From Ruthenibacterium lactatiformans (GTDB lineage: Bacteria > Bacillota > Clostridia > Oscillospirales > Ruminococcaceae), in the NCBI RefSeq assembly GCF_000949455.1, contig NZ_JXXK01000020.1:10314-42313 (forward strand): 32,000 nt of DNA. The letters run 5' to 3'. Below, piece after piece: positions 992 to 21,103 of the stretch. The notes beneath the pieces were generated by a model, which was given only the letters and a program-made list of their open reading frames with translations, was not told the origin of the DNA and did no database searches. Position numbers and translations under genes: made by a program. How positions within the stretch are numbered: position 1 is the stretch's first letter; each line of letters begins with the position of its first letter.

Positions 992-1018
992 GCCATGACC
1001 CAATATGTTTTTTACCAG

Positions 1019-1055: not shown

Positions 1056-1090
1056 CCATAAACACCAATCAACATACAAAGGAGAAATCA

Positions 1091-2233
1091 ATGCGCACTT
1101 TTTATTCTGCTGAATCTGTCACCGAAGGCCACCCCGACAAGCTCTGCGATCTCATCGCAGACAACGTCCTGGACGCGTGTCTGACCGGAGACCCCGCCAG
1201 CCGCGTCGCCTGTGAGGTCATGGCCACCCGTGGTCACATCATTGTGGCCGGTGAGATTACCACCGAAGCAAACCCCGACGTGTTCAACATTGCCCGGGAC
1301 GTGCTGCACAGCGTTGGGTACGACCCCAAGAGCTTTCAGATCGATTGTTATCTGCATCCTCAGAGCCCGGATATTGCCGGAGCTGTGGAAGTGCCTGCGG
1401 ATAGCCCCGAAGATGACGAGGCCATCGGTGCCGGTGACCAGGGTGTCGTCATCGGGTACGCCTGCAACGAAACGCCCGAACTGATGCCCATGCCCGTGGT
1501 GATCGCTCACCGCCTCACCAGCCTGCTGACCCTGGCCAGAATGACCGATGCTGTTCACGGAATCGGCCCCGATGGCAAAGCCATGGTGGTTGTGGAGTAT
1601 GAGGATGACAAACCGCTGCGGGTAGATCAGATCCTGCTGTCGGTCCAGCATGAGGCGGGGGTACATATCGAGGATATCCAGGCCGACATCTTTGCTCAGG
1701 TCATTTTGCCCGCCCTCAAAGGAATGCCCACCGATGATCGGATGGAAGTCATCCTCAACCCCAGCGGCAGTTTCGTGGTGGGCGGCCCGGAAGCCGACAC
1801 CGGCCTGACGGGCCGCAAGCTCATGGTGGATGCTTACGGGCCTTTTGTGAGCCAGGGCGGCGGGGCGTTGTCCGGCAAAGACCCCACCAAAATTGACCGG
1901 ACCGCTGCGTACATGGCCCGGTACATTGCGAAAAACATTGTGGCTGCCAATATTGCGGATCGGTGCCGCGTGGCCCTGACCTATGCCATTGGCATGGCCA
2001 AGCCCATGGCGGTTACGGTGGACACCTTCCAAACGTGTTTTCGCTGCGATGACGAATATCTGGCAGCGGCAGTGCGCCATGTGTTCGATCTGACCCCGGC
2101 GGGCATGATCGAGACCCTCCATCTGCAGCAACCGATCTATGCCCGTACTGCCGTCGGCGGGCATTTCGGACGTGAAGATTTTCCCTGGGAGCAGGTGGAT
2201 AAGAGTAGCCTGCTGATGAGGGCCCTTTCCTGA
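1091..2233 (+). CDS. metK: S-adenosylmethionine synthetase (divergent, element-borne MetK paralog)
   Basis: ATG at 1091 is preceded by AAAGGAGAAATCA. Motifs GHPDK (1127-1141), GAGDQG, GGPEADTGLTGRK, GGGALSGKD and DRTAAY align with MetK. The 995 start on the ORF track is an upstream extension with no RBS. Confidence 0.9.
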   Translation: MRTFYSAESVTEGHPDKLCDLIADNVLDACLTGDPASRVACEVMATRGHIIVAGEITTEANPDVFNIARDVLHSVGYDPKSFQIDCYLHPQSPDIAGAVEVPADSPEDDEAIGAGDQGVVIGYACNETPELMPMPVVIAHRLTSLLTLARMTDAVHGIGPDGKAMVVVEYEDDKPLRVDQILLSVQHEAGVHIEDIQADIFAQVILPALKGMPTDDRMEVILNPSGSFVVGGPEADTGLTGRKLMVDAYGPFVSQGGGALSGKDPTKIDRTAAYMARYIAKNIVAANIADRCRVALTYAIGMAKPMAVTVDTFQTCFRCDDEYLAAAVRHVFDLTPAGMIETLHLQQPIYARTAVGGHFGREDFPWEQVDKSSLLMRALS

Positions 2234-3204
2234 TGCCCGGTGTCAGCAAGGAACAGATCGCCGCCGCCAAAAAGATGACGGCCATTGAATTCTTGCGGCG
2301 GTATCGTTCCGCAGATCTGGTCAAGAGCAGCGCCCGCGGCGAGTTCGAGCTGCGCAGTCACGACAGCTTCAAAATTAACGGTGAGTCCAGTGTCTGGCAC
2401 TGGAAAAGCCGTGGGATCGGAGGCAAGTCTGCCCTGGACTATCTCGTCCATGTGGAGCAGTGTGGTTTTGTGGAAGCCGTGCGGATGCTGTGTGATGAGG
2501 TACCTGGGTACATCCCTGTCGCTCATGAGGAGGTGGAGCAGAAGCGCCCGGAGTTCTCTCTTCCGCCTGCTGCCCGCAACAATGCCCGGGTTGTGGCGTA
2601 CCTTTGCGGGCGAGGCATTTCCCCCGTGGTGCTCAGTTACTGTGTGGACCGTGGCCTGGTCTATGAGAGCCTGCCGTATCACAATTGTGTGTTTATCGGA
2701 AAGGATGAAAACGGCACAGCACGGTACGCAGCTTTGCGCGGCACCTACGGCCAAGGGCGTCCGTTTAAGGCTGAAACGCCGGGCAGCGACAAGCGGTATG
2801 GCTTCTGCATTCCGCCGCTGCATCCTTCCACCACGGTGGCAGTGTTTGAGGCGGCCATTGATGCCATGGCTGAGATGACTCTCTCCGATAATACCGCAGA
2901 CAAATACCGCCTCTCGCTGGGCGGCATCTATGCTCCGAAAGAAGAAAATGTGGAGATCAAGACGCCAGTGGCATTGGTGGAGTTCCTGCGTCAGCATCCG
3001 GATGTGGACACCATCCAACTGTGCATGGACAATGATGAGCCGGGCCGCCATGCGGCGCTGGCCATCGCCCGCAATCTCGGCGGCAAGTACAAAGTGTCCC
3101 TGTGCCTGCCGCAGATCGAGGGCGGCGACTATGCCGACCTCGCCAAACAAATCAAACAGGCAAGATGTGCCTGTACCAGACATCGCACCGAGTTGGCGCG
3201 ATGA
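2233..3204 (+). CDS. DUF3991 + Toprim domain protein (conjugative primase/TraC-like accessory protein)
   Basis: The ATG overlaps the metK TGA by 1 nt. Toprim Glu context VAVFEAAIDAMAE and acidic motif CMDNDEPGRHAA are present. The N-terminal WHWKSRGIGGKSALDYL region is typical of DUF3991. Confidence 0.75.
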   Translation: MPGVSKEQIAAAKKMTAIEFLRRYRSADLVKSSARGEFELRSHDSFKINGESSVWHWKSRGIGGKSALDYLVHVEQCGFVEAVRMLCDEVPGYIPVAHEEVEQKRPEFSLPPAARNNARVVAYLCGRGISPVVLSYCVDRGLVYESLPYHNCVFIGKDENGTARYAALRGTYGQGRPFKAETPGSDKRYGFCIPPLHPSTTVAVFEAAIDAMAEMTLSDNTADKYRLSLGGIYAPKEENVEIKTPVALVEFLRQHPDVDTIQLCMDNDEPGRHAALAIARNLGGKYKVSLCLPQIEGGDYADLAKQIKQARCACTRHRTELAR

Positions 3205-4256
3205 CCATAACGGAGGTGATGCGATTGAGTGAACGCATTTTCAAAATGTACTCTCCGCTGACTGGTGAACTGTACCAGGCCGGAGAGTATGAATACGAGG
3301 ATTCCGCCGACGAATACAACGGCGAAGAACTGCTGCTTTATGCGGAGGAAATTGAAAAGGCAGTCAAGGCCTACACCGACAACGGTACCGAAGATCTCAT
3401 GAAATACTTCTATGAGAGCGATTACGTTAAGCAGCACGTTCGGAGTCTGGTCCCCTCGGTGGAGGTCTGGAACGGGCGGCTTTATGGTTGTACCACGGTG
3501 CGGGCAGATGATGATCTTTCGGAACCCGGCTGGGACAAGCTCATGGACTACCTGGCCGGACAGTATTCAGACGGCTGGGGCGAGGGCTTCGAGCAGCGGG
3601 AAATCGAAACCGAAGATGGCCTGCTGTATGTGCATTTCTGGCAGGACCACGACTTCGACTTCACGGTGGAGGAAGTCACCCCTTCGAAGAAGTATGAGAT
3701 CACCGACATCGCGCATCCCAAAGATCCCAGCCTGCACCGTATCCGGGCTCTGACGCGGGTAAGCGAAACCGTTGGCCCCGGTACCCTGGGCGGCTATGTC
3801 CAGAGCGAGGAAAATCTGACCCAGGAAAACGATGGTGCCTGGATCTACGGGGATGCCATCTGCTGCGAAAACGCCATCGTGACAACCGGGGCTTTCCTGA
3901 CTGGACAGGCCCGGGTAAGCGGTTCGGCCCTCGTTTCCAATGAAGCTGAAATCGGTGGCCAAGGCCGCGTCCGTGACCGCGCGGTAGTGTCCGGCGGTAC
4001 GGTGCAGGAAGGTGCCGTCGTCTGCGGCGATGCCGTTATTCGGAAAAACCAGATCACCGGAGCAGTGCCCCTCGTGGAAGGCCATGCCACCGTGATGGGC
4101 GTTGTGGCCGGTGCGGTTTACCTGGGCGCGGATGCCTTTATTCTGCCGGGAAACACGGTGGACAACCCCACCAACAGTGTCCTGGCCATCAACGGGACCC
4201 ATGTGCGGCTGTACAGCATTGAGCAGGTCAAGCCGCCGAAAGCGCCTGAACGCTGA
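3201..4256 (+). CDS. Hypothetical fusion protein: unknown N-terminal domain + YdcK-like left-handed beta-helix (hexapeptide-repeat) C-terminal domain
   Basis: ATGA overlap with the upstream stop (3201-3204). The C-terminal HRIRALTRVSETVGPGTLGGYVQSEENLTQENDGAWIYGDA, followed by repeated G-x-A-x-V units, resembles the E. coli YdcK family. Confidence 0.6.
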   Translation: MTITEVMRLSERIFKMYSPLTGELYQAGEYEYEDSADEYNGEELLLYAEEIEKAVKAYTDNGTEDLMKYFYESDYVKQHVRSLVPSVEVWNGRLYGCTTVRADDDLSEPGWDKLMDYLAGQYSDGWGEGFEQREIETEDGLLYVHFWQDHDFDFTVEEVTPSKKYEITDIAHPKDPSLHRIRALTRVSETVGPGTLGGYVQSEENLTQENDGAWIYGDAICCENAIVTTGAFLTGQARVSGSALVSNEAEIGGQGRVRDRAVVSGGTVQEGAVVCGDAVIRKNQITGAVPLVEGHATVMGVVAGAVYLGADAFILPGNTVDNPTNSVLAINGTHVRLYSIEQVKPPKAPER

Positions 4257-4268
4257 ATAATAGAAAGG

Positions 4269-5075
4269 ATGATGCCTTTGACAAATACTCTCCAGCAATC
4301 CACTTTGTTTTCTTCCAACGATTTTACTATGCCCGAGCATTTTGGAGATGACCGCTGGACGATTCTGCATGGCGATGTCATGCACATCGTTCCGCACATG
4401 ACCAGAGCCGTCTTTGATGCCGTCATTACCGACCCGCCCTATGCCAGCGGCGGTGCCAGCCAGACGGCCAAGAACCGCTCGACTACCGAGAAGTACAGCA
4501 GTCTGCGCGGCGACAAGGCACTGCCGGATTTTGACAGTGACCAGATGGACCAGCGCAGCTGGACCCGGTGGATGTGTGAATGGCTTCAGATGGTGCGTGC
4601 TGCCTGCAAGCCCGGTGCGCCCATCTGCCTGTTCATCGACTGGCGGCAGCTGCCCTCCATGACCGATGCCCTGCAGTGGGCCGGGTGGACCTGGCGCGGA
4701 ATCGCGGTATGGGATAAGCCGTCCGGTCGACCGCAGCGGGGGCGCTTCCGTCAGCAAGCCGAGTTTATCGTTTGGGGTTCCAACGGCAAGATGCCGCTGG
4801 AGCGCAATGTGGGTTGTTTGCCGGGGGTATTCCGTCAGGCCAACCCCGCCAACCGCATCCATGTGACCGAAAAGCCCCTGCAGCTCATGCGGGATGTGGT
4901 GCAGATCTGCGAACCGGGAGGCCGAATCCTCGACCCGTTTGCCGGTTCCGGCACCACCATTTTGGCTGCGGTGCAGGAAGGGTACGAAGCGGTGGGCATC
5001 GAACTTACCGACGCCTACTTCCAGCTTGGTACCCAGCGTGTGAAACAGGCGCTGGAGCCACAGAGTGAATCTTAA
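4269..5075 (+). CDS. Orphan site-specific DNA methyltransferase, beta-class (N6-adenine or N4-cytosine)
   Basis: Motif IV DPPY at 4431-4442 precedes motif I (LDPFAGSGTT), the circular order typical of beta-class enzymes. No restriction endonuclease gene is adjacent. The exact start (4269, 4272 or 4329) is uncertain. Confidence 0.85.
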   Translation: MMPLTNTLQQSTLFSSNDFTMPEHFGDDRWTILHGDVMHIVPHMTRAVFDAVITDPPYASGGASQTAKNRSTTEKYSSLRGDKALPDFDSDQMDQRSWTRWMCEWLQMVRAACKPGAPICLFIDWRQLPSMTDALQWAGWTWRGIAVWDKPSGRPQRGRFRQQAEFIVWGSNGKMPLERNVGCLPGVFRQANPANRIHVTEKPLQLMRDVVQICEPGGRILDPFAGSGTTILAAVQEGYEAVGIELTDAYFQLGTQRVKQALEPQSES

Positions 5076-5086
5076 CAAGATTCACT
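5064..5086 (+). repeat. Hairpin/palindrome AGTGAATCTT-AAC-AAGATTCACT spanning the methyltransferase stop codon
   Basis: Perfect 10-bp arms. The same arm sequence is reused in the terminator stem at 5102-5132. Confidence 0.8.
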
Positions 5087-5101
5087 GACAGAAAGAACCG
5101 T

Positions 5102-5140
5102 GCGGAGTGAATCTTATTAAGATTCACTCCGCCTCATTTT
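5102..5140 (+). terminator. Intrinsic terminator
   Basis: GCGGAGTGAATCTTA-T-TAAGATTCACTCCGC forms a 15-bp perfect stem, followed by CTCATTTTT. Confidence 0.75.
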
Positions 5141-5156
5141 TGGAAGGAGAACCGAT

Positions 5157-5495
5157 ATGAAACGTCCCTGGGCCTACGTGTGCGCCACCAATGACACCAA
5201 CTCCAAGACTTTACGCGGCTATTGCCGCACGATTTTTCAGTGCGGATATGTGCCGGTCTGTCCTCGTCTGCAGGACGGGCAGTTCATTGTGCTGGAAAAT
5301 CCCGATGAACGCCATGCCTTCAACGAAATTTTGCGGGACAAACTGCTCCGCTGCACAGTCTTGGTGGTTTGCGGTAAGCATTCGGATGCGACTACCAACG
5401 CGGAAGTGGGCCTTGCCAAGAAATACAGCAAGGTCCTCACAACGCTGGACGGTGTTTTGCAGGCCGCCGAAAAGGGAGAAATCCTCACCGACTGA
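5157..5495 (+). CDS. Small hypothetical protein; weak resemblance to the nucleoside 2-deoxyribosyltransferase-like/DUF4406 fold
   Basis: ATG lies 8 nt after GGAAGGAGA. The pattern ...CTVLVVCGKHSDATTNAEVGLAKKYSKV... recalls the C-terminal part of that fold. The functional assignment is tentative. Confidence 0.55.
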   Translation: MKRPWAYVCATNDTNSKTLRGYCRTIFQCGYVPVCPRLQDGQFIVLENPDERHAFNEILRDKLLRCTVLVVCGKHSDATTNAEVGLAKKYSKVLTTLDGVLQAAEKGEILTD

Positions 5496-7121: not shown

Positions 7122-8438
7122 ATGGCCTATACATCCATTATCCCCGTCCGCCGCCTGGACCGAGCGGTGGACTATGTGCGGGATAAAGCCAAGACAACAC
7201 GCGGCCCCAAGTCTTTGCAGGACGCAGTGGATTACGCCCTCAACCGGGATAAGACGGAGTCGGATTGTTTTGAAACGGGACTCAGCTGTGTATGCGAAAC
7301 CGCCTTTGAGGATATGCGGGATACGGTACAGCGCTGGCAGCAAACTGCCGGTGTGCAGGGATACCACCTTGTTCAAAGTTTTGCTGAGGGAGAAGTTACG
7401 CCGGAACTGGCTCATCAGATCGGGGTGGAGCTGGCTGAGCAGCTGCTGCAAGGCCGTTTTCAGGCGGTGGTTACCACTCACCTCAATACCAAACACTATC
7501 ACAATCATATTGTGTGGTGTTCGGTGGCTCTGGACAATGGCCGGAAATACCACAGCAATGCCAAGTCCTACTATACCGAGGTGCGGGCCCGTTCCGATGC
7601 GCTCTGCAGAAAATATGGACTATCCATCATTGAGACCAAAGAAAGTGAACAGTCCTCCATGCCGTATCACGTTTGGCTGGACGAACAGGAGAATCGTCCA
7701 AACTGGACATCTATGGTGCGCCAGGACGTGAATGAAGCGATCTCACAGGCTCTGACCTGGCGGCAATTTCTGCAGTGTTTAAGTCAGAAAGGATACACCT
7801 TCCGTTTCAATCGGAAATATCCTACGCTGCAGCCGCCCGGAAAACCTCGCCCGATTCGTTTCAAAACCCTGGGAAAGCAGTATACCCCGGAGACCATCAA
7901 ACAGCGCCTCCTCTACTCGCAGAAAACCTACCCAGCAGAACCACACGTCCATCATACCCGGCTACACGGAATCTACCGGAAAGCGCGCAAGCCTTTGAGC
8001 TTGCGCGCTTTCTATTATCGGGAACTGTATATGCTGGGAGTCTTTCCCCGGAAACCTTGGCATCCATCCCCGGCCGTGCGGGAGGAAATCCGTCAGCTAG
8101 ACAAACGAATTGAGCAGTACGAATTTCTGATGCGCCGGGATATCAGCACTCTGGCACAGCTGCGAGATCTCCGTGCCCAAACGGAAGCGAAGGTGCGGCA
8201 ACTGAACGCAGAGCGCAACCGTCTATACAAGGTTAACCCGAAAAGTGACCAAATCCCGCTGATTACCCAACGTCTGCGGGAACTCCGCAAGACCATCAAA
8301 TTGTGCAAGCAAATCGAAGAACATTCGCTGGAAATGGCACAGCGCCAGGAAGAAGAACAAAAGCGCCGTGCCGAACAAGAAAGGAGCAATGCCCATGAAC
8401 GCGAATCAATGGAATTACCGGGTCCAATACGCCCGTGA
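7122..8438 (+). CDS. Relaxase/mobilisation nuclease (MobA/VirD2 family)
   Basis: N-terminal MAYTSIIPV...; the histidine triad context HLNTKHYHNHIVW lies near 7490-7515. The C-terminus is coiled-coil rich. RBS AGGGAGGAAGGAAG lies upstream. Confidence 0.9.
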   Translation: MAYTSIIPVRRLDRAVDYVRDKAKTTRGPKSLQDAVDYALNRDKTESDCFETGLSCVCETAFEDMRDTVQRWQQTAGVQGYHLVQSFAEGEVTPELAHQIGVELAEQLLQGRFQAVVTTHLNTKHYHNHIVWCSVALDNGRKYHSNAKSYYTEVRARSDALCRKYGLSIIETKESEQSSMPYHVWLDEQENRPNWTSMVRQDVNEAISQALTWRQFLQCLSQKGYTFRFNRKYPTLQPPGKPRPIRFKTLGKQYTPETIKQRLLYSQKTYPAEPHVHHTRLHGIYRKARKPLSLRAFYYRELYMLGVFPRKPWHPSPAVREEIRQLDKRIEQYEFLMRRDISTLAQLRDLRAQTEAKVRQLNAERNRLYKVNPKSDQIPLITQRLRELRKTIKLCKQIEEHSLEMAQRQEEEQKRRAEQERSNAHERESMELPGPIRP

Positions 8439-8667
8439 TCATTACCCGCCCGGCACCCGTGTTCGGTTGCTGAATATGCCCGACGATCCCCAGCCCATTC
8501 CGCCCGGTACGACCGGCACGGTGTTGGCCGTGGACGATGCGGGTCAGCTGCTTATGAATTGGGACAACGGACGGGCTCTGAGCCTTCTGCCCGGAACGGA
8601 TTCTTTTGAGGTGATCAGCCGTCCGAAGGCCAAAGACGTACAGCGTCACAAAGGAGAAGCCAGATGA
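8395..8667 (+). CDS. DUF4314 domain protein
   Basis: YPPGTRVRLLNMPDDPQPIPPGTTGTVLAVDDAGQLLMNWDNGRALSLLPGTDSFEV matches the recalled DUF4314 pattern. The ATG at 8395 lies 8 nt after AAAGGAG and overlaps the relaxase 3' end. Confidence 0.75.
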   Translation: MNANQWNYRVQYARDHYPPGTRVRLLNMPDDPQPIPPGTTGTVLAVDDAGQLLMNWDNGRALSLLPGTDSFEVISRPKAKDVQRHKGEAR

Positions 8668-9398
8668 ACTACGGTGCAGAACCGGCGGATCAGGTCGTTC
8701 GCTACTCGCTTGAGGGCACCGAAGTTGCCCTGCGTCTTTCGGGATCGGCGGCGATCACCTTTGCCAAGTTTGTAGCCGCGGTACTCAAGGACCAGAAAAA
8801 GACCCACGGCAAAACCCGTCTGGTCCGCCTGCTGCGGGAAGGCAAGCCGCTGAAGTTCTTCTCGGTGGAGAAAGATCGGATGCGGGAGTTCGCCCATGAA
8901 GCGAAGATGCACGGCCTGCTGTTTGTCCCCATGCGGGACAAAACCGATCCCGACCATATCGAGATCGCAATCCTGGCCGATGACGCCTCCAAGGTGAATC
9001 GGATCTTTGACCGCCTGCAGCTGGATGTGGTGGACACCGGCATGGCAGAAGCGGTGGACGAGGTGGCGCAGGACATGGAGGCTATGCCCACTGAAGCACC
9101 GGACACTCCGCAGAAAGAGCCTCAGAAGGAGGAAGCACCGCCGGTTTTTCCTTCCCCGGCCCGTCACCAGACGGAGCCGGAACCCGCCCCTCCGTCCATG
9201 CCTTCCTCGAACAACAACGAGAAATCGCCGCCTATGTGGCCCGGATTCCGCGCCGACCAGGTGCGGGCCCGGGGTAAGCGTCCCAGCGTCCGACTGGAAT
9301 TGGGCGAGATCCGCGCCATTCTGGCCGCCCGCAAGGAACATTCCCCCATGCCCAGGTCGCCTATCCGAATCCACCGGGATGGTCCGGTCCGCGGGTAA
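8664..9398 (+). CDS. pcfB: PcfB-family conjugation protein (DUF3801)
   Basis: ATGA overlap with the upstream stop. HGKTRLVRLLREGKPLKFFSVEKDRMREFAHEAKMHGLLF is the typical PcfB core. The C-terminal tail is Pro-rich. Confidence 0.75.
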   Translation: MNYGAEPADQVVRYSLEGTEVALRLSGSAAITFAKFVAAVLKDQKKTHGKTRLVRLLREGKPLKFFSVEKDRMREFAHEAKMHGLLFVPMRDKTDPDHIEIAILADDASKVNRIFDRLQLDVVDTGMAEAVDEVAQDMEAMPTEAPDTPQKEPQKEEAPPVFPSPARHQTEPEPAPPSMPSSNNNEKSPPMWPGFRADQVRARGKRPSVRLELGEIRAILAARKEHSPMPRSPIRIHRDGPVRG

Positions 9399-9499
9399 AA
9401 GTTTTCCGTTTGTTTTCATTTGAGGGATAGCTATTCAAGGATAGCTGTGGTATGGTTTCCGTAATAGAAACCACCAGAAAGAAAAGGAGGCATCCCCTT

Positions 9500-9814
9500 A
9501 TGAGTGAACGTGTAATGAAGATGGACCGGAACGATAAAAGTATTCTCATCCGCGCACTCCATGCGCAGTATCGGGAGAAAAAAGCCAGTGGCAAACCCTA
9601 TGCCGAAATCGGCCAGCTGATCCTGCGCATCGATGCAACAGACCCCGGACGTCTGCGCCTGGGGGATGCCGAATACCTGCTGGCAAGGAATGCCCTCAAT
9701 GATCTGCGCAACCAGCGCATTGCCAGTGGTGGTTACACCGATGCCGCCGATGCGGCCCTTGCCAATCTGCTGCGGGCCAAAGTGCCTTTCCATCTCTTCG
9801 GTCATACGCGCTGA
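9500..9814 (+). CDS. Hypothetical small protein (104 aa)
   Basis: The ATG follows GAAAAGGAGG with ~9-nt spacing. The gene is followed by its own terminator. No family recognised. Confidence 0.55.
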   Translation: MSERVMKMDRNDKSILIRALHAQYREKKASGKPYAEIGQLILRIDATDPGRLRLGDAEYLLARNALNDLRNQRIASGGYTDAADAALANLLRAKVPFHLFGHTR

Positions 9815-13650: not shown

Positions 13651-14487
13651 GTGGGTGACAGCTGGATCGTAAGCAACCTCAACGCTGCCCTGACCACCTG
13701 GAATGACAAACTGGGAGAGATCTGGCAGCTGCTGACCCAAAGTCCACAGACCTTCAAGGACGGCCAGGTATGGGCCGTGATGGTGGGCATCCACGGGGCA
13801 CTGCAAGCCATTGGCTACGGGTTGCTGGTACTCTTCTTCGCAGCCGGTGTGGTCAAGACCTGCGGCACCTTCGTGGAGGCCAAACGCCCCGAACAGGCCC
13901 TCAAACTCTTTATTCGCTTCGCCCTGGCCAAAGCAGCTGTGACCTACGGTCTGGATCTGATGCTGGCTATCTTCCAGATCGTGCAGGGGATGGTCTCCAC
14001 GGTGATCAACCAATCTGGCGTGTCCGGAATGAGCGCCGTTACACTGCCCCAAGATCTGATTGACGCCATCAACCAGGTGGGTTTTTGGGATTCCATCCCG
14101 CTTTGGGCTGTGACTCTGATCGGCGGGCTGCTCATTACCGTACTATCCTTCGTGATGATCCTGACCGTGTATGGCCGTATGTTTTCCCTTTGGATGTATG
14201 CGGCCATTGCCCCCATTCCGCTTTCGTCCTTTGCCGGAGAACCCACGTCCAATGTGGGCAAGAACTTCCTGCGCAGTTATGCCGGTGTCTGCCTGCAGGG
14301 CGTAGTCATTGCTTTGGCCTGCATCATCTTCTCCGCTGTGTCCTCCAGCCCGCCCGCTGTGGATACCAGCGTCTCGGTAGTAACCGCCACCTGGACCTAT
14401 GTGGGAGAACTGGCCTTCAACCTGCTGGTGTTGGTTGGTGCGGTGAAGGGATGTGACCGGATCGTCAAGGAAATCATGGGCCTGTAA
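13651..14487 (+). CDS. VirB6/TrbL-like polytopic conjugal-transfer membrane protein (CD0415/CD1112-type)
   Basis: GTG start after AAAGGAGGTGATATACC. Multiple hydrophobic segments. The position between Maff2 and PrgI is as expected. Confidence 0.7.
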   Translation: MGDSWIVSNLNAALTTWNDKLGEIWQLLTQSPQTFKDGQVWAVMVGIHGALQAIGYGLLVLFFAAGVVKTCGTFVEAKRPEQALKLFIRFALAKAAVTYGLDLMLAIFQIVQGMVSTVINQSGVSGMSAVTLPQDLIDAINQVGFWDSIPLWAVTLIGGLLITVLSFVMILTVYGRMFSLWMYAAIAPIPLSSFAGEPTSNVGKNFLRSYAGVCLQGVVIALACIIFSAVSSSPPAVDTSVSVVTATWTYVGELAFNLLVLVGAVKGCDRIVKEIMGL

Positions 14488-14508
14488 CAGAAAGAGAAGT
14501 GATTGCTT

Positions 14509-14889
14509 ATGGAAATCAAAATTCCCAAAGAAGTCCGGGACTACCATGAGACCATCTTCTTCGGTCTCAACACCCGGCAGTTTATCTGCTCACTGCTGGC
14601 CCTCGGGGTGGCGGTGGGCGTTTATTTTTTGCTCCGTCCGCTGCTGGGAACAGAGGAAATCGGCTGGGTCTGCATCCTGGCCGCCGCGCCTTTCGCAGCC
14701 TGCGGATTTTTTTCCTACCACGGCATGACTGCCGAGCAGCTGTTTTGGGCGTGGTGCAAATCCGAGATTCTGAGCCCCAAGCGGCTGATCTATCGTTCCA
14801 ACAGCTATTACTACGATGCGATCCAGGGAGGGATGCGTATGAAGAAACCCAAACAGAAGAAGCGCAGCCGTAAGGAGAAGCGCCATTGA
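14509..14889 (+). CDS. prgI: PrgI-family (VirB3-like) T4SS membrane protein
   Basis: MEIKIPKEVRDYHETIFFGLNTRQFIC... followed by two TM segments. Basic C-terminal tail. The stop overlaps the virB4 start. Confidence 0.75.
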   Translation: MEIKIPKEVRDYHETIFFGLNTRQFICSLLALGVAVGVYFLLRPLLGTEEIGWVCILAAAPFAACGFFSYHGMTAEQLFWAWCKSEILSPKRLIYRSNSYYYDAIQGGMRMKKPKQKKRSRKEKRH

Positions 14890-17225
14890 TCAAGACCCTG
14901 TCCAAAGCGCGGAAACAGGAGCGTGTAAAGTTCCGTATTCCGCGCAGCGTGCAGGACTGCATTCCCATCCGCCGCATTTGGGCGGACGGGATCTTCCAGG
15001 TGGGCCACCAGTTCTCCAAGACCTGGTCGTTCACCGACATCAACTATTCGATTGCCGGCAAAGAAGATAAGACGGCAATGTTCCTGGACTACTGCGACCT
15101 GCTCAATGCACTGGACTCCGGTGCTTCGGCCAAGATAACTCTGTACAACCGGCGGATCAACAAGGAAGAATTCGAGCGGTCCGTTCTGCTGCCTCTCAAG
15201 GAGGATGGGTTGGACAATTACCGCGAAGAATTCAACGAGATGCTGCGCGCTCAAGTCACCGAGAGCAATAACAGTATCGTCCGGGAACGGTACCTTACCA
15301 TCAGTGTCGTCAAGCGCAACATCGAGGAAGCCCGCACCTACTTTGCCCGTGTCGGCACTGATCTGACCACCAAGCTGGCGGCGCTGTCCTCGGTGGCGCA
15401 GGAACTTTCGCTCAATGAGCGCCTGCGGATCTTCCGGGACTTTTTCCGTCCTGCAGACCCGCCGGCAACCGAGTTCGATATCCACCAGAAGGCTCGGCGA
15501 GGCCAGCATTTCAAAGACTGGCTTTGTCCCAGCAGTATGGAGTTCTCCGCCGACCATTTCAAGATTGATGACCGCATGGGCCGGGTACTCTACTTGCAGG
15601 ACTTCGCCAGCTATCTGAAGGACAGCTTTGTATCGGAGCTCTGCGACCTGGATCGTGAGCTAATGTTGTCCATCGATATTCTGCCCATTCCCACCGATGA
15701 GGCCGCCCGTCAGCTGCAGAATACGCTGTTGGGTGTAGAAACCAACGTGACCAACTGGCAGCGGAAACAGAACGCCAACAACAACTGGTCGGCCATTGTA
15801 CCTTACGACATGGAACTTCAGCGCAAGGAAACCAAGGAGATGCTGGATGATCTGACCACCCGCGACCAGAGGATGATGTTTGGTCTGGTCACCCTCGTCC
15901 ACATGGCAGGAACCAAGGAACAGCTGGATGATGATACCGAATCGCTGCTCTCTGTTGCCCGCAAGCACCTGTGCCAGCTTTCCACGCTGCGCTGGCAGCA
16001 GCGGGATGGGTTGGACACCGTGCTGCCCTATGGATTGCGGCGCATCGAGGCGCTGCGCACCCTGACTACCGAAAGCACGGCGGTGCTCGTTCCTTTCCGC
16101 GCCCAGGAAATTATGCAGACCCATGGACTCTACTATGGCCAGAACACCATCAGCCGGAACCGCATCGTGGTGGATCGCCGGCAGCTGCTCAACGGCAACA
16201 GCTTCCGGTTGGGCGTGTCCGGCTCCGGCAAGTCCATGAGCGCAAAAGAGGAAATCGCTCAGATTGCCCTGTCCACAGAGGATGATATTTTGATTCTGGA
16301 CGTGGAATCCGAGTTCGGACATCTGGTGGAAGCCTTCGGCGGCGAGGTCATCCGCATCTCGGCTACATCGGACACCCACATCAATGCGCTGGATATGGAC
16401 CGCGCCTATGGTGATGAGCGGAACCCCATTGTGTCCAAGAGCGAATTTGTCTTGAGCCTGTTTGAGCAGCTGATCGGCAGCGGGCTGGTCACCGCCAAGG
16501 AAAAATCCATCCTGGGCCGCTGCACGGAGCAGGTCTATATGCCCTATGTCCGCAACGGGTACAAGGGCGCAGTCCCCACGTTGAAAGACTTCTACCGCCT
16601 GCTCAAGATGCAGCCGGAACCGGAAGCGCAGGGGTTGGCCCTCTCCTCGGAGCTCTTCATCACCGGCACCCTGGGGACCTTTGCCCAGCCCACCAACGTG
16701 GATACCAAGGCGCGCATCATCGCCTACGATATCCGCGAACTGGGCGAACAGCTGATGCCCCTCGGAATGCTGGTGACACTGGACGCCATCTACAACCGCG
16801 TGATTAAAAATTGGGCGAGAGGGCATCGCACCTGGATCTTCTGCGACGAGTTCTATATCCTGTTCCGGTACGAGTACAGCGCCAATTTCTTCTACAAGCT
16901 CTGGAAGCGCATCCGCAAGTACAACGGTCTGATCACCGGCATGACGCAGAATGTGGATGAGCTGCTGCGTTCCGACACCGCTCGTCTGATGCTGGCCAAC
17001 TCCGAGTTCCTGATCATGCTCAACCAGAGTGCAACCGACCGGGATGAGTTGGCCAAACTGCTGAACATCTCGGACACCCAGCTGGGGTACATCACCAATG
17101 TGCCGGCTGGTTGCGGACTGATCCGCTGCGCAGGAAATCTGGTTCCATTCACCAACAACTTCCCCAAGGATACGCAGCTCTACCGCCTCATGACGACCAA
17201 GCCCGACGAACAACTGAAAGGATGA
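14886..17225 (+). CDS. VirB4-like conjugal transfer ATPase
   Basis: 779 aa. Walker A GVSGSGKS near 16211-16234; Walker B-like TWIFCDEFY. The TTG start overlaps the prgI stop (TTGA). Confidence 0.9.
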   Translation: MIKTLSKARKQERVKFRIPRSVQDCIPIRRIWADGIFQVGHQFSKTWSFTDINYSIAGKEDKTAMFLDYCDLLNALDSGASAKITLYNRRINKEEFERSVLLPLKEDGLDNYREEFNEMLRAQVTESNNSIVRERYLTISVVKRNIEEARTYFARVGTDLTTKLAALSSVAQELSLNERLRIFRDFFRPADPPATEFDIHQKARRGQHFKDWLCPSSMEFSADHFKIDDRMGRVLYLQDFASYLKDSFVSELCDLDRELMLSIDILPIPTDEAARQLQNTLLGVETNVTNWQRKQNANNNWSAIVPYDMELQRKETKEMLDDLTTRDQRMMFGLVTLVHMAGTKEQLDDDTESLLSVARKHLCQLSTLRWQQRDGLDTVLPYGLRRIEALRTLTTESTAVLVPFRAQEIMQTHGLYYGQNTISRNRIVVDRRQLLNGNSFRLGVSGSGKSMSAKEEIAQIALSTEDDILILDVESEFGHLVEAFGGEVIRISATSDTHINALDMDRAYGDERNPIVSKSEFVLSLFEQLIGSGLVTAKEKSILGRCTEQVYMPYVRNGYKGAVPTLKDFYRLLKMQPEPEAQGLALSSELFITGTLGTFAQPTNVDTKARIIAYDIRELGEQLMPLGMLVTLDAIYNRVIKNWARGHRTWIFCDEFYILFRYEYSANFFYKLWKRIRKYNGLITGMTQNVDELLRSDTARLMLANSEFLIMLNQSATDRDELAKLLNISDTQLGYITNVPAGCGLIRCAGNLVPFTNNFPKDTQLYRLMTTKPDEQLKG

Positions 17226-17227
17226 GG

Positions 17228-17236
17228 TATATGAAG
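17228..17236 (+). repeat. Left copy of the 9-nt direct repeat TATATGAAG flanking the accessory cassette
   Basis: An identical 9-mer occurs at 19301-19309. Confidence 0.6.
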
Positions 17237-17237
17237 C

Positions 17238-17267
17238 AAAAAAATAAAGGACCGCCCAGGGCGGTCC
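17238..17267 (-). terminator. Intrinsic terminator for the minus-strand 68-aa ORF / XRE unit
   Basis: GGACCGCC-CAG-GGCGGTCC (17249-17267). On the minus strand it is followed by TTTATTTTTTTG. Confidence 0.7.
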
Positions 17268-17279
17268 CCATATGTAAGG

Positions 17280-17486
17280 TCAGTGTGACCAGATGTTATT
17301 TTCCAGATCGCGCAGACGCGCGCGGTAGTCCTTCACGATCTCTTCGGTTTTCTCCACATCCGGGAAGGTGACCAGATAGTCGTCGCCCGCCTGATGAAAA
17401 CTCACAACACCGGCAAGACCCGCTATTTCCGCAACCTTGATGAGCGTATGAAAATCATATTCCTTGGAACTGAACAGAATATTCAT
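17280..17486 (-). CDS. Hypothetical 68-aa protein downstream of the XRE regulator
   Basis: ATG at 17486 is preceded by AAAGGAGCGCTTTGGC. A longer version starting at 17540 is possible. No family recognised. Confidence 0.55.
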   Translation of the reverse strand: MNILFSSKEYDFHTLIKVAEIAGLAGVVSFHQAGDDYLVTFPDVEKTEEIVKDYRARLRDLENNIWSH

Positions 17487-17547
17487 GCCAAAGCGCTCCT
17501 TTGATGATTCATAAAAGTGAGATAAACGACCGTGTGACATTTTTATA

Positions 17548-17576
17548 AGTATATCATAAAAGGACGATGTTTTGTA
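17548..17576 (-). promoter_or_regulatory. Possible extended -10 promoter for the 68-aa ORF
   Basis: Minus strand reads TACAAA-17 nt-TATACT, with TG one nt upstream of the -10. Confidence 0.3.
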
Positions 17577-17582
17577 CCTGTA

Positions 17583-17936
17583 TTATTCTTGCTTTAGTTT
17601 CTCGTTGGTTCTGACCGTTTCTACAGCAGCTTTGGCTACTTCATAGGCGATACGAACTTCATACGGTTCGCAGGTATCCAGCAATGCCTGCATATCACGC
17701 TCAAATTGAGGACGGGCCTGCAACAAATTATCACACAGTAAATCGTCCACTGTGACGCCCAAAGCGTTGGCGATTTTTACGATGGTCGTCAAACTGACCT
17801 TGGTTGTCCCCGTTTCTACGTTACTCATATGGGTGGGTGATAAAGATATCTTGTCTGCCAGCTGCTCTTGCGTAAGGTCTAATCCGATACGGGCAATTTT
17901 GATCCGCTTTCCAATAGCTTTATAATCCAGCTCCAT
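17583..17936 (-). CDS. XRE-family helix-turn-helix transcriptional regulator
   Basis: MELDYKAIGKRIKIARIGLDLTQEQLADKISLSPTHMSNVETGTTKVSLTTIVKIANALGVTVDDLL is a canonical HTH_XRE sequence. The ATG lies 6 nt after GGTGGAG. Confidence 0.85.
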   Translation of the reverse strand: MELDYKAIGKRIKIARIGLDLTQEQLADKISLSPTHMSNVETGTTKVSLTTIVKIANALGVTVDDLLCDNLLQARPQFERDMQALLDTCEPYEVRIAYEVAKAAVETVRTNEKLKQE

Positions 17937-17964
17937 AAAAGTCTCCACCATTCGTTTTTCATTA

Positions 17965-17993
17965 TTGTAACTACGGTGGCAAAACAATATAAT
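17965..17993 (+). promoter_or_regulatory. Near-consensus sigma-A type promoter directed toward the MBL lipoprotein gene
   Basis: TTGTAA (17965-17970), a 17-nt spacer, then TATAAT (17988-17993). Confidence 0.5.
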
Positions 17994-17997
17994 AAAC

Positions 17998-18020
17998 TAT
18001 ATCCGTAGAATACGGATATA
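17998..18020. promoter_or_regulatory. Candidate operator: perfect inverted repeat TATATCCGTA-GAA-TACGGATATA
   Basis: 10-bp arms located immediately downstream of the -10 box, in the divergent XRE/MBL intergenic region. Confidence 0.5.
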
Positions 18021-18148
18021 AGGAAAGACCGTTGGAAAAATATTTATCCAATATGCTTTTTGGCTGAAAAAAGGAATGAAAAGTACGAAATTCTTCCTTT
18101 TTCGCGGTTGTTTTCGCATACACTGATTCCACAAGCAAAGGAGTTCTT

Positions 18149-19297
18149 ATGAAGCAGGAGCGTTTTCGAAAAGCCTGTGGTATTTTTTGGTCGGCGGTGC
18201 TTGCTCTTAGTACCGCTTCGTGTGCTGCGGTTCCGTCAACTTCGCTTTCGACAGCCCCGGCAGTTACCGCAATACCTGAAGAAATATATGCCGCACCAAC
18301 GGTTGGTGAGCCAAACGATGCGACATTCTCTCTGACTATGCTGGACGTGGGGCAGGGGCTTTCCGTTCTTGTACAAGCGAATGGTGAGTATCTGTTGTAT
18401 GACGGCGGCGGTCGCGGCGCGTCCTCCTATGTGGTTGCCTATCTCCAACAGCACGCTGTGAAAGAATTGGAATGGCTGATAGCCTCCCACTATGACGAGG
18501 ATCACATCAGTGGTCTGGTGGGTGTGCTTCATACCACACCGGTGGAGCAGGCTTTGATGCCGGACTACACCACCGACACCCAAATCTACCAATCCCTGCA
18601 AAATGTGCTGGGAGAAAAGAGTGTCCCGGTGATTTATCCAGCTCAAGGAGATACCTTCTCTCTGGGCGGTGCAGAAATCCAAGTTGTAGGGCCCCGGAAT
18701 TATGCCTATGATTCGGACAACGACAAATCCCTCTGCCTGCGTATTTGCTACGGGAATTTCCAATGCCTGCTGACCGGAGATGCCGAGCAGGACGCAGAAC
18801 TGGACATGGTGGCTTCCGGGCAGGATCTGACCTGTGATTTATATGTGGTAGGGCATCACGGTAGTTCCTCTTCCACTAGTGAAGAACTGTTGGACGCGGC
18901 AGCTCCTGCCTATGCCTTACTTAGCGTGGGGGAGGACAACCCATATGGGCACCCTACAGAACAGACGCTGGAAGCTCTGCAACGGCATGAAATTGCCCTG
19001 TACCGAACCGATCAGCAGGGCGAAGTTACCGTGTATTCCGACAGACACCAATGCTGGTTCAGCACAGAGCCGTGCCAAGACTGGAGTACTGGAAACCAAA
19101 GCATTCCCGAAGAACCCCTTGCCACAGCGGTACCGCAGACCGCACAGTATGTGCTAAACACTCACACCAAAAAGTTTCATTTTCCGGATTGCCCCAGCGT
19201 TGATCAGATGAGTGAAAAGAACAAGGAGTTTACAGATGCTTCTCGAGATGAATTGATTGCCAGAGGCTATACGGCCTGTGGCCGATGTAATCCATAG
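18149..19297 (+). CDS. Lipoprotein with a ComEC/Rec2-type metallo-beta-lactamase-fold domain and a C-terminal His/Cys zinc-binding motif (putative surface nuclease/hydrolase)
   Basis: Signal peptide with lipobox LSTAS-C. MBL motifs SHYDEDH, TGDAE and GHHGS. C-terminal FHFPDC...ACGRCNP (H-x3-C...C-x2-C). RBS AAAGGAG lies upstream. Confidence 0.8.
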   Translation: MKQERFRKACGIFWSAVLALSTASCAAVPSTSLSTAPAVTAIPEEIYAAPTVGEPNDATFSLTMLDVGQGLSVLVQANGEYLLYDGGGRGASSYVVAYLQQHAVKELEWLIASHYDEDHISGLVGVLHTTPVEQALMPDYTTDTQIYQSLQNVLGEKSVPVIYPAQGDTFSLGGAEIQVVGPRNYAYDSDNDKSLCLRICYGNFQCLLTGDAEQDAELDMVASGQDLTCDLYVVGHHGSSSSTSEELLDAAAPAYALLSVGEDNPYGHPTEQTLEALQRHEIALYRTDQQGEVTVYSDRHQCWFSTEPCQDWSTGNQSIPEEPLATAVPQTAQYVLNTHTKKFHFPDCPSVDQMSEKNKEFTDASRDELIARGYTACGRCNP

Positions 19298-19300
19298 ATA

Positions 19301-19309
19301 TATATGAAG
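19301..19309 (+). repeat. Right copy of the 9-nt direct repeat TATATGAAG
   Basis: Identical to 17228-17236. It overlaps the foot of the terminator stem. Confidence 0.6.
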
Positions 19310-19350
19310 GGCGGCTACCTGCCGGAAAAGCAGGTGGCCGCCCTTTTTAT
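19307..19350 (+). terminator. Intrinsic terminator
   Basis: AAGGGCGGCTACCTGC-CGGAAAA-GCAGGTGGCCGCCCTT (one mismatch in the stem) followed by TTTAT. Confidence 0.8.
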
Positions 19351-19378
19351 ATAATATTTTCAAAAAGCAGGTGATTCA

Positions 19379-21103
19379 ATGAAAGAGAATACCCACAAAG
19401 AGCCCAAGCAGAAACCCTTTGGACGCGCGTCAAGAGAACGCGTAACAAATCGGCTGCCGAAAACCCTTGTGCGGCAAGCATGGCTGAAAAGTAAGGAAAA
19501 AGCAATTTCGGCAACACGCACAAAGTCTGGTGGCAACTATACCTCTGCACAGGAAATGGAAGAGTATGCTGTCCAGCAAGGAGAAGCCTATCTGGAAGAT
19601 GGAGTTCTCTTTGCATTGCGGAAAACAGGTGACGTTGCCAAAGATCGTTTCACTCGCAAACAAGAACCGGATAAACCGCCACAGGATGATTCCGTGTATA
19701 GAGATGCTCCGGAACCGAGAGAGAAGAAAAACGCAGTCCGTAAAGCCTCCGGCTCCGATCCGCAAGCAAACGCCAAGACGGAGCAGAAACGACGAACTGC
19801 TCAGAAGCAAAGCCGCGATGTCAAAGCGCGCCAGCAACGGATCAAGAAATCTACCCGAGGGGTACGCGGTGTCGATAGAGATCAAAAACAACTTCGCACG
19901 GCTGCCAATACCGTCCGCAAAGAAAAACAGGCAAGGCAAGCAGTGCAACGCACACAGAGAATGATCTATCGGGCCCAGCAGGCCGCCCGGGAAAGCGCAG
20001 AAGCAGCCAAAAAGGTGATTACTGTAATACACTCGGCGATTCAGCACCTGTTGGCTGCCCTGCAGAGCCTTGCGGCTGCACTGATTGCTGGCGGCTGGGT
20101 AACCGTGTTTGTCATCCTGCTGATCTGTTTAATTGCCCTTGTGGTAGGATCAGCTTACGGTATCTTCTTCGCTGAAGAATCCCCGGATGAGAATGCTATC
20201 AGCGTACAGGATGCCGTGGAACAGCTAACCGAAGAATATCGGGACCGGTTGGAAGAAATTGAAAACGGTGTAGACTATGACCGCCAGGAGATCGAGTCCA
20301 ACGATGGCAGCTATGCCATTGCGTGGCAGGATGTCCTGGCGGTTTTTGCGTCGCAAACATCAGGGGATGCCAATGGTGCTGCTGTTGCCTATTTGGATGA
20401 GGACAACGTGGATCGGCTGCGCACCGTCCTTTGGGATATGAACGAACTGGATTGGCGCACCGAAACCCAAACTCGGGAGGTAGAACAAACAAATGGGGAG
20501 GGGGAGACAGAAACCACAACCATTACAGAAACCATCCTGATCATTGAAATGACCCACCATACACCGGAAGAAATGCGGGAAACCTATCACTTTACAGACA
20601 GGCAGAATGAATACCTGACACTTCTGTCAGGCGAAGATACCACAATCCTTTGGGGTGAACTACTGGGTGGCTTCGTGCAGGGAAGTGGGGAACTCATGGC
20701 CCCCGGCATGGATACTGTTTTCGCAGACGGAGCCCTCCAATGGCCCTTGCCGATTGCGGGAACAATTACATCACCGCAAGGCTACCGTACCGATCCTATC
20801 ACAGGTGAAATCAGCTACCATAGCGGTACCGACATCGCTGTTCCGGAGGGTACACCAATTTTGGCTGCTGCAGATGGTACCGTAACAATCGCCAATGCCA
20901 CCGACAGTTGGGGAGGCAGTTACGGGTATTATGTTAAAATCGACCACAGTGGCGGGCTGACGACCCTCTACGCCCATTGTTCCAGCATCTGTGTCACTGC
21001 AGGGCAGCAGGTAGATGCCGGTCAGATTATCGCTTATGTTGGGCACACGGGAAGGGCTACCGGTAGCCACCTTCACTGGGAGATATGCTTGAGTTCGTAT
21101 TGA
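19379..21103 (+). CDS. TM-anchored conjugation cell-wall hydrolase with M23 peptidase domain (CD1108-type), probably 3'-truncated
   Basis: Lys/Arg-rich N-terminus, one TM segment (GGWVTVFVILLICLIALVV), and M23 motifs HSGTDIAV and GSHLHWEI. The ORF stops 5 codons after HLHWEI, exactly where the AT-rich DNA begins. Confidence 0.75.
   Translation: MKENTHKEPKQKPFGRASRERVTNRLPKTLVRQAWLKSKEKAISATRTKSGGNYTSAQEMEEYAVQQGEAYLEDGVLFALRKTGDVAKDRFTRKQEPDKPPQDDSVYRDAPEPREKKNAVRKASGSDPQANAKTEQKRRTAQKQSRDVKARQQRIKKSTRGVRGVDRDQKQLRTAANTVRKEKQARQAVQRTQRMIYRAQQAARESAEAAKKVITVIHSAIQHLLAALQSLAAALIAGGWVTVFVILLICLIALVVGSAYGIFFAEESPDENAISVQDAVEQLTEEYRDRLEEIENGVDYDRQEIESNDGSYAIAWQDVLAVFASQTSGDANGAAVAYLDEDNVDRLRTVLWDMNELDWRTETQTREVEQTNGEGETETTTITETILIIEMTHHTPEEMRETYHFTDRQNEYLTLLSGEDTTILWGELLGGFVQGSGELMAPGMDTVFADGALQWPLPIAGTITSPQGYRTDPITGEISYHSGTDIAVPEGTPILAAADGTVTIANATDSWGGSYGYYVKIDHSGGLTTLYAHCSSICVTAGQQVDAGQIIAYVGHTGRATGSHLHWEICLSSY

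Follow-up and report, generated by a model that had tools for sequence, protein, structure and literature searches.

DNases that are encoded by mobile genetic elements and exported by the cell have been described in Gram-negative hosts, in which IdeA of the integrative and conjugative element (ICE) VchInd5, SxnA of SXT and Dns of the Campylobacter prophage CJIE1 inhibit transformation (PMC12378983). [quoted passage not shown] In the M. glycerini protein H598, D600, D602, H603 and D700 bind two Mn2+ ions and H725 and S728 contact the substrate; mutating these residues abolishes or lowers the DNase activity, and all of the mutations except that of S728 abolish transformation (PMC12455585). The locus described here lies in a stretch of 32,000 nucleotides (the window) of contig NZ_JXXK01000020.1, assembly GCF_000949455.1, and belongs to an ICE. 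Between the virB4 gene of this element, encoding its conjugation ATPase, and the gene of its M23 peptidoglycan hydrolase there are three genes, for a small protein (s68), an XRE-family regulator and a lipoprotein with a metallo-beta-lactamase (MBL) domain, none of them a recombinase. We hold with moderate confidence that this interval is a mosaic cargo slot containing s68 and an XRE-repressed surface lipoprotein nuclease, and not one insertion with a 9-bp duplication. For the lipoprotein and its regulator a repressor-gated surface DNase is the most likely interpretation.

The lipoprotein has the fold of the ComEC/Rec2 domain (9ic4), the same set of H-x-D-x-D-H, Asp and His-Ser residues and, by prediction, the same extracytoplasmic location. 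Residues 1-25 (18149-18223) are a basic and hydrophobic signal, MKQERFRK...LALSTAS-C25, with a predicted helix at 2-21 and, by pattern match, a lipobox; most of 37 homologues also have a Cys at this place. They are followed by a disordered low-complexity linker (residues 26-55), the MBL domain (residues 60-300, 18326-19048) and a zinc module (residues 334-382, 19148-19294). The first-pass annotation, made from the letters of the window, had called this protein a lipobox-anchored ComEC-type MBL with a C-terminal zinc motif, and this description is supported: the motifs SHYDEDH, TGDAE, GHHGS and H-x3-C...C-x2-C are all present, the C-terminal region of TIGR00361 matches with an E value of 3.7e-44 (model positions 436-663 alone, 150.9 bits against a cut-off of 190), and phmmer finds the ComEC chains of the PDB with an E value of 1e-35. 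The best Foldseek match of its AlphaFold (AF2) model (pLDDT 87) is the M. glycerini domain 9ic4, with an E value of 2.6e-22, a TM-score of 0.85 and 32% identity. Residues H114, D116, D118, H119, D211, H236 and S239 align with H598, D600, D602, H603, D700, H725 and S728 of M. glycerini ComEC, and all seven, together with H344, C348, C377 and C380 of the zinc module, are invariant in the 37 homologues. With PADLOC the protein gave only partial MBL-domain matches, to LmuA, Avs1a and RTasMBL, and no full-length match to a defence protein. Unlike ComEC, it has neither an OB fold nor a transmembrane channel, being a free lipoprotein of 382 residues with a single N-terminal helix, a low-complexity linker and an Ada-like zinc module in the place of the OB fold, and it is encoded on a mobile element beside an XRE repressor. 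The protein belongs to the ComEC nuclease-domain family without being a ComEC itself, since it lacks both the channel and the OB fold.

The zinc module provides the strongest argument about the substrate. Its ligands, H344-x3-C348-x28-C377-x2-C380, have the spacing of the N-terminal zinc domain of Ada (X-x3-C-x26/28-C-x2-C; Ada_Zn_binding, PF02805), and PF02805 matches 12 of the 37 homologues at an E value of 0.01 or better, the best being 1.1e-7. In Ada the first ligand is a cysteine, the methyl-accepting Cys38, whereas here it is a histidine, and secreted nucleases carry the module at their C-terminal end, a position which argues for a binding module rather than a repair domain. Taken alone, the 49 residues match the C-termini of three kinds of proteins in plasmid and phage records: DNA/RNA non-specific endonucleases (Endonuclea_NS_2) of Ruminococcus albus pRUMAL01, Lachnospira eligens and an Evtepia phage, Exo_endo_phos proteins of 68 Pseudomonas plasmids, and other MBL proteins. 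Pfam confirms the catalytic domains in three examples (L139 1553-2650, L140 1523-2635 and L141 3518-4150; L numbers denote the related loci and contigs compared with the window), and PF02805 scores 20.6, 16.9 and 24.9 bits in these fusion partners; with them included, the motif of the module reads H/C-x3-C...C-x2-C. The presence of one module on three unrelated nuclease folds points to a nucleic acid as the substrate. It also suggests that in the lipoprotein the module may replace the OB fold, an aid to DNA binding by the ComEC domain, as a DNA-binding handle, and the module looks like a portable part of secreted or element-borne nucleases.

The XRE gene is divergent from the MBL gene, as had been noted from the letters alone, and the two are paired in L074-80, L088-90 and L134-136. 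The pair in L088-90 has 61% protein identity and stands in an unrelated mobile context, with genes for sigma/HTH_16 regulators, nonribosomal peptide synthetase (NRPS) and DUF3854 proteins. The promoter-like sequence facing the MBL gene has both of its hexamers invariant in five XRE-MBL loci, the unrelated context of L088 included, and the perfect palindrome directly after it, TATATCCGTA-gaa-TACGGATATA, has a core, CCGTA-N3-TACGG, which is invariant as far as L088. In relatives with a different helix-turn-helix (HTH) regulator the palindrome differs as well: it is ACCCGAATACGGGT, and copies of it in the two orientations surround the promoter of these relatives. As the exchange of the regulator is accompanied by an exchange of the palindrome, we infer that the XRE protein represses the MBL promoter through this site. 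The strong terminator reported behind the MBL gene is indeed a very stable hairpin (19299-19353), the stem of which extends into A/T-rich arms (AUAUAU.GAAGGGCGGCUACCUGC ... GCAGGUGGCCGCCCUUUUU.AUAUAU). Rfam gave no match near threshold in 17100-19500. An exact 11-nt repeat, AAAAGCAGGTG, is found at 19326-19336 and 19363-19373; through it the ribosome-binding region of the M23 gene is repeated in the 3' arm of the terminator. The 5' arm could pair with either copy, with attenuation or masking of the ribosome-binding site as possible effects.

According to the reading that we favour, the XRE protein would bind the palindrome at 17998-18020 and hold the MBL gene off until a cue arrives. The lipoprotein would then be tethered to the outer face of the membrane, where its ComEC-type two-metal nuclease domain, with the zinc module serving as the DNA-binding handle, would degrade extracellular or incoming DNA at the cell surface. 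The element would likely gain from the blocking of natural transformation or of rival DNA; the scavenging of DNA is the alternative. The XRE and MBL genes form a mobile two-gene unit (module 2), with s68 as an unrelated module 1. The lipoprotein resembles IdeA, SxnA and Dns as an exported nuclease carried as ICE or prophage cargo, its export and activity being predictions here, and the proposed benefit is the same. It differs from them in its enzyme family, in its Gram-positive anaerobe host and in being lipid-anchored and not periplasmic. A wider proposal, that mobile elements of Gram-positive gut anaerobes have repeatedly captured the nuclease domain of their hosts' own DNA-uptake machine as a, on this ICE repressor-held, lipid-anchored DNase with a zinc handle, which blocks rival DNA or the curing of the element by transformation, is unlikely, though still to be reckoned with.

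Proteins of this family are widespread. Among the candidates scored there are more than 2,800 MBL homologues at an E value of 1e-10 or better, named at source 'ComEC/Rec2 family competence protein' or 'MBL fold metallo-hydrolase', and homologues occur in 188 plasmid records and 39 phage records. A chromosomal paralogue of 66% identity lies beside the ATP synthase operon without a regulator; there are chromosomal copies in Lachnospiraceae, and another copy is found beside Rep3 replication and integrase genes. The phage family phrog_14556 has the full MBL-plus-zinc architecture (E value 7e-87), and with Clostridium phage c-st, gp37 of Geobacillus phage GBSV1 and the Clostridium estertheticum plasmids it belongs to the standalone ComEC-type genes of Clostridia and Bacilli, which are of the same family as the MBL gene of the window. 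Many of these standalone members share the order of signal peptide, MBL domain and zinc module, and they are annotated by homology; in contrast, the divergent XRE gene with its conserved operator and the position in an ICE slot are particular to the lineage of the window. The statement of the first-pass annotation that no such system is described was consequently too strong, given that standalone ComEC-type MBL genes are common and annotated, and that the element-borne DNases IdeA, SxnA and Dns are known. The literature searched yielded no characterised member with this MBL-plus-zinc architecture. The phage family phrog_7043 ('tail protein', a profile of 1077 positions) also contains a ComEC-type MBL domain, with an E value of 1.6e-50.

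Two possible parallels were set aside. The non-specific nuclease GBSV1-NSN of phage GBSV1, considered as its ComEC-like MBL, is a DnaD-like ORF (PMC2390534), and the MBL protein of this phage is gp37. Hvo_1477 of Haloferax, considered as another lipoprotein acting on extracellular DNA, is a thermonuclease and not an MBL protein, and only some of its larger haloarchaeal homologues add a COG2333 domain, so that it offers an analogy at best (PMC3929857).

Several points weigh against a surface DNase serving the element. The chromosomal paralogue and the Lachnospiraceae copies make a general housekeeping role possible, and the copy on the ICE need not serve the element. The Ada match of the window protein itself falls below the Pfam threshold (16.8 bits against 23). 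The remaining points concern other activities for the MBL domain. The second-best structural match of the lipoprotein is Pce, the pneumococcal teichoic-acid phosphorylcholine esterase (2bib; E value 3.5e-15), which the authors of the ComEC structure also name as the closest structural homologue of the ComEC domain (PMC12455585). The tail-protein family phrog_7043 has the same MBL domain, and a phosphodiester substrate in the cell envelope is possible. As the MBL gene stands directly upstream of the M23 hydrolase gene in every ICE copy, the lipoprotein might be a Pce-like phosphodiesterase which trims phosphodiester-linked wall polymers such as teichoic acids and phosphoglycans and so helps the hydrolase to make way in the wall for the conjugation channel. 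We regard this as quite unlikely. The identity to Pce is 17%, against 32% to the ComEC domain, and the TM-score 0.41-0.70 against 0.85; the metal motif is the H-x-D-x-D-H of ComEC, and the zinc module is elsewhere fused to DNA/RNA endonuclease and endonuclease/exonuclease/phosphatase (EEP) domains. Moreover, the MBL gene has a promoter, a repressor and a strong terminator of its own and is thus not in the operon of the type IV secretion system (T4SS), and many functional-looking ICE relatives are without it.

The last of these points is the kinship with AHM-1 (NF049846), likewise a standalone MBL protein, encoded by a core chromosomal gene of Clostridioides difficile and reported, as cited in PMC13203522, to be a B3-like beta-lactamase. 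The NCBIfam model blaAHM matches the whole MBL domain of the window protein (E value 3.6e-28), and the gene might accordingly be taken as antibiotic-resistance cargo. The match nevertheless reaches 98.3 bits, far under the family cut-off of 590, and the 304 positions of the model include no counterpart of the C-terminal zinc module. True B3 enzymes are distant structural matches (E values of about 1e-7, TM-scores of 0.3-0.47), and their motif, H/Q-x-H-x-D-H, differs from the H-x-D-x-D-H of the window. A beta-lactamase of the AHM-1 type is therefore highly improbable here, and a ComEC-type nuclease is the reading that we retain for this domain.

Cargo hotspots of ICEs, such as those of SXT/R391, are regions of variable content flanked by conserved backbone genes. 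The interval between virB4 and the hydrolase gene is similar, since its flanks are conserved and mosaic gene sets replace one another at a single intergenic position; it differs from the SXT/R391 hotspots in that it interrupts the run of T4SS genes in a Firmicutes ICE, with a conserved hairpin on its left (Table 1). The slot was surveyed in 53 genome loci, with virB4 relatives of 57-98% amino acid identity, in 40 metagenome loci and in the neighbourhoods of the individual proteins. In the related loci virB4 and the hydrolase gene are separated by about 70 bp (L036, L044 and L062) to about 5 kb, and at least 20 gene arrangements are found between them. The DNA in question is thus accessory cargo, absent or replaced in related elements, as the first-pass annotation had proposed, and the direct adjacency of virB4 and the hydrolase gene on which it had relied holds for some more distant relatives, the three loci just named. 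On this evidence, 17226-19378 is best described as the present state of a recombination-prone cargo slot in Gemmiger/Subdoligranulum ICEs.

Table 1. Positions of the features of the cargo slot and of the adjoining backbone genes in the window
Feature	Position	Strand	Assignment and basis
TrbL/VirB6-like gene	13651-14487		Backbone
PrgI gene	14503-14889		Backbone
virB4 (CD1110-type conjugation ATPase)	14886-17225	+	NF045971, 1004 bits; left backbone flank of the slot
Left copy of TATATGAAG	17228-17236		Backbone spacer, outside the cargo junction
Hairpin GGACCGCCC/GGGCGGTCC with T-run	17237-17269 (stem 17249-17267)	-	Terminator scan; fold -17.5 kcal/mol
s68, 68 aa	17280-17486	-	Conserved small protein; independent module (block 17280-17512)
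s68/XRE-MBL junction	17513-17576		64 nt without a match in fuller relatives; shared with L021 up to 17561
XRE-family regulator, 117 aa	17583-17936	-	PF01381, 52.3 bits (cut-off 23); HTH at residues 8-66 (17739-17915)
Promoter-like TTGTAA-17-TATAAT facing the MBL gene	17965-17993	+	Sigma-70-type
Perfect 10-3-10 palindrome	17998-18020		Candidate XRE operator at the transcription start, directly after the promoter
MBL lipoprotein, 382 aa	18149-19297	+	ComEC-type MBL domain and Ada-like zinc module
MBL gene terminator	19299-19353	+	Inverted repeat; fold -39.4 kcal/mol, z -8.4
M23 peptidoglycan hydrolase gene	19379-21103	+	PF01551, E value 1.4e-30; right backbone flank, last gene of the element

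Of the fuller arrangements the commonest, that of L077-79 and L134, begins with virB4, the hairpin and variable genes, either an extracytoplasmic function (ECF) sigma factor and two ORFs or two other ORFs. Next come three minus-strand genes (s68, SRAP and LexA-like S24), two plus-strand ones (a Y-family polymerase gene and an 84-aa ORF), the gene of the 117-aa XRE protein on the minus strand and finally the MBL and M23 genes on the plus strand. Compared with these relatives the window is without about 3 kb containing the SRAP, S24 and polymerase genes and the 84-aa ORF, and the fuller arrangements are widespread: their MBL variants have entries in 26, 53 and 32 index blocks, the MBL gene of the window in 28. 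Other states include the fuller gene set without the XRE-MBL pair (L032), s68 alone before M23 (L024, L025, L063, L065 and L066), s68 and one or two different HTH proteins before MBL (L021, L045, L116 and L128), a truncated S24 gene running directly into MBL (L094, L104 and L111) and MBL without any XRE gene (L106). L074-L076 carry a group II intron reverse transcriptase (RVT_N, RVT_1 and GIIM; 2023-3822) between the LexA-like and the Y-family polymerase genes, and in L027 (G. formicilis ATCC 27749) a second VirB4 fragment of 40% identity (8376-9746) stands directly after virB4 and is followed by an s68 homologue.

When the window is mapped with blastn onto the fuller forms it falls into a backbone block (17200-17271), an s68 block (17280-17512) with 86-90% identity to the fuller forms, and an XRE-MBL block (17577-19400). 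The XRE half of the latter is 72% and the MBL half 90% identical to L074/L077, a difference which indicates recombination inside the pair too. The single cassette proposed at first is consequently divided, by block mapping and by co-occurrence, into two modules, and the 2.1-kb stretch is, as far as such comparisons can tell, a shortened mosaic state of a hotspot in which the two have separate histories. At the s68/XRE junction the change may have been a deletion from the fuller form or an insertion into a shorter one. The dip in GC content over 17350-18250 (s68, XRE and intergenic DNA) is real, with 0.37-0.46 against 0.50-0.56 in the MBL gene, while the 55-70% first given for the backbone was too high, virB4 having 0.53-0.61.

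At the left edge of the slot the hairpin with its stem at 17249-17267 reads on the minus strand as a good intrinsic terminator, and about 14 relatives with unrelated cargo have kept the hairpin and its preceding A-run just behind the virB4 stop. In the window (17226-17270) and in L024, L026-L030, L033, L063, L065, L066 and L070 it takes the form GGACCGCC-N3/4-GGCGGTCC, with AAAAATAAA ahead. In several relatives an ATG 3-8 nt beyond the virB4 stop opens a short ORF starting with M-x-(Y/Q)-K-N-(K/R)-G-P-P, which may be no more than a reflection of the hairpin. The recombination edge of the slot could lie at this hairpin.

The 68-aa ORF at 17280-17486, which had been reported as belonging to no recognised family, gave no match in Pfam, NCBIfam or PADLOC and one marginal match in PHROGs. 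Its 157 homologues, all unnamed or hypothetical, are conserved in length and share 29 invariant columns, and the few that come with organism names are all from Gemmiger or Subdoligranulum. An exhaustive profile search over 1.8 billion representatives gave just 135 clusters, mostly short or partial and none of them annotated. Its AF2 model is beta-alpha-beta-beta-alpha (pLDDT 89), for which Foldseek found no match at an E value of 0.001 or better in the PDB or BFVD. From this conservation s68 is evidently a real gene, confined to these elements. In the spacer upstream of s68, within 17513-17576, the window and L021 have a promoter-like sequence with an extended -10-like motif, TGATATACT (minus strand, about 17545-17556), which we infer to be a promoter.

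What s68 regularly accompanies is not the MBL gene but the left edge of the slot and, where the element is fuller, the SRAP/LexA-like operon. It follows SRAP in L077-79, L134 and L032, and in the fuller relatives a LexA-like(S24)-SRAP-s68 operon, adjoining the Y-family polymerase gene, ends with it. Ten arrangements have s68 without MBL (L024, L025, L027, L032, L034, L063, L065, L066, L114 and L123), and MBL is found without s68 in L106, L088-90, L085 and L081. The earlier suggestion that s68 could be an inhibitor or co-regulator of the MBL protein finds no support in this distribution. As the XRE gene is followed on the same strand by a small ORF, and the XRE protein has weak matches to the HipB, HigA and PezA antitoxin models, the two might also be seen as a toxin-antitoxin or addiction pair by which the element is stabilised, MBL being an unrelated neighbour. 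These matches are, however, all far under the family cut-offs, and s68 matches no toxin family or fold. The adjacency of s68 and XRE is specific to the variant in the window: elsewhere s68 comes after SRAP, other HTH types or nothing, and the 117-aa XRE protein follows the 84-aa ORF. We give this pairing hardly any credence.

The first-pass annotation had seen in the 9-mer TATATGAAG the footprint of an insertion with a 9-bp target duplication or of microhomology-mediated capture. The 9-mer does occur at 17228-17236 and 19301-19309, with no other copy in the window on either strand, and the virB4 stop (17225) and the hydrolase start (19379) are placed correctly. Around it a system of three genes can be imagined, namely XRE, the nuclease and s68 as its inhibitor or co-regulator, inserted together and leaving the repeat as a scar. 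The three lie side by side in the window and in 19 more contigs with identical proteins, the 9-mer flanks them, and a shared 9-mer is expected in just 1-4% of shuffles: the two spacers had a word of at least 9 nt in common in 1.1% of cases with mononucleotide shuffling and in 4.2% with first-order Markov simulation. Such a word is, nevertheless, shared by 20 of 803 equally spaced pairs of segments in the window, and the 2.2-kb region has five more exact 9-mer pairs and three longer exact repeats; the shared 9-mer is at most weakly unusual. Against joint insertion, s68 and MBL each occur without the other and are separated by 3 kb of other genes in the fuller relatives, and by this co-occurrence test the three-gene system fails, as does the toxin-antitoxin pair. 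Such a system is very improbable.

The position of the two copies speaks against a scar of any kind. Homology to relatives with unrelated cargo extends to 17256-17271, and the backbone therefore runs 20-35 nt beyond the left 9-mer. The right copy is the outer 5' arm of the stem of the MBL gene terminator; at the same place the relatives with the order MBL, terminator and M23 have TAGAAATAGATAAAGG (L021), TAGATATAGATGGAGG (L074/L077) or unrelated sequence (L078), so that the 9-mer is not kept. The repeats of a target duplication lie exactly at the boundary between insert and backbone, and here this is the case on neither side. An empty site was sought across metagenome contigs with a gapped pattern consisting of the virB4 end, a gap of 2-25 nt and the MBL terminator. 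It gave no match in a metagenome collection holding 40 contigs of the lineage, these being the contigs recovered by the control pattern, the virB4 3' end, and no related site with a single TATATGAAG was found among them. L022 and 29 of the 40 contigs of the control scan are short relatives with only about 300 bp from virB4 to M23 and a different junction. They retain an in-frame 3' remnant of the MBL gene (its last 45 codons or so, without a start codon), and they are for this reason deletion derivatives and not virgin sites. The ORFs and repeats between virB4 and M23 include no transposase, recombinase or terminal inverted repeat, in agreement with what had been noted before. The target duplication or capture scar can thus be discarded, since the left copy is backbone, the right copy is a non-conserved terminator arm, no empty site was found and the short relatives have an MBL remnant. 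That TATATGAAG stands both in an A/T-rich spacer and in a terminator arm is a coincidence.

The element as a whole has a Gemmiger formicilis-like host, the closest genome matches being G. formicilis An812 and metagenome-assembled genomes (MAGs) of Gemmiger and Faecalibacterium with VirB4 proteins 97-98% identical. The M23 gene product is a 574-aa membrane protein with the M23 peptidase domain at its end. Homology with relatives stops at about 21063-21085, within the last M23 codons (stop at 21103), and beyond it there are at least five different chromosomal neighbourhoods. The M23 C-termini vary among relatives, and the Pfam M23 match stops 9 profile positions short of the end of the model. 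On its right the ICE seems to end where the hydrolase gene has its 3' end. Upstream cargo at 302-5495 consists of DUF3846, a complete S-adenosylmethionine synthetase gene (995-2233), DUF3991/Toprim, an N6/N4 DNA methylase (4269-5075) and DUF7768, and could be an anti-restriction or methylation-support set. Several metagenome contigs also show large internal deletions (L011 10262-12649; L080 3396-5132; L009 4148-4942; L094/L104/L111) which create fusion ORFs in decayed elements, among them a relaxase joined to the VirB4 C-terminus (795 aa), a relaxase joined to the Y-family polymerase and a truncated S24 gene abutting MBL. This suggests a frequent decay of these ICEs in gut populations.

The finding is for the most part ordinary accessory-gene mosaicism, and as such it maps a hotspot in which the cargo of an ICE is shuffled by deletion and recombination and not by transposition. 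Its remaining value lies in the portable zinc module and in the idea that mobile elements redeploy the nuclease domain of competence against incoming DNA. The module, found on three kinds of nucleases, is a candidate for a portable DNA-binding handle of secreted nucleases. If the lipoprotein is a surface DNase switched on by the element, the anti-transformation tactic of mobile elements would reach the abundant Firmicutes of the human gut and a second enzyme family, and the large family of standalone ComEC-type MBL proteins would gain a function.

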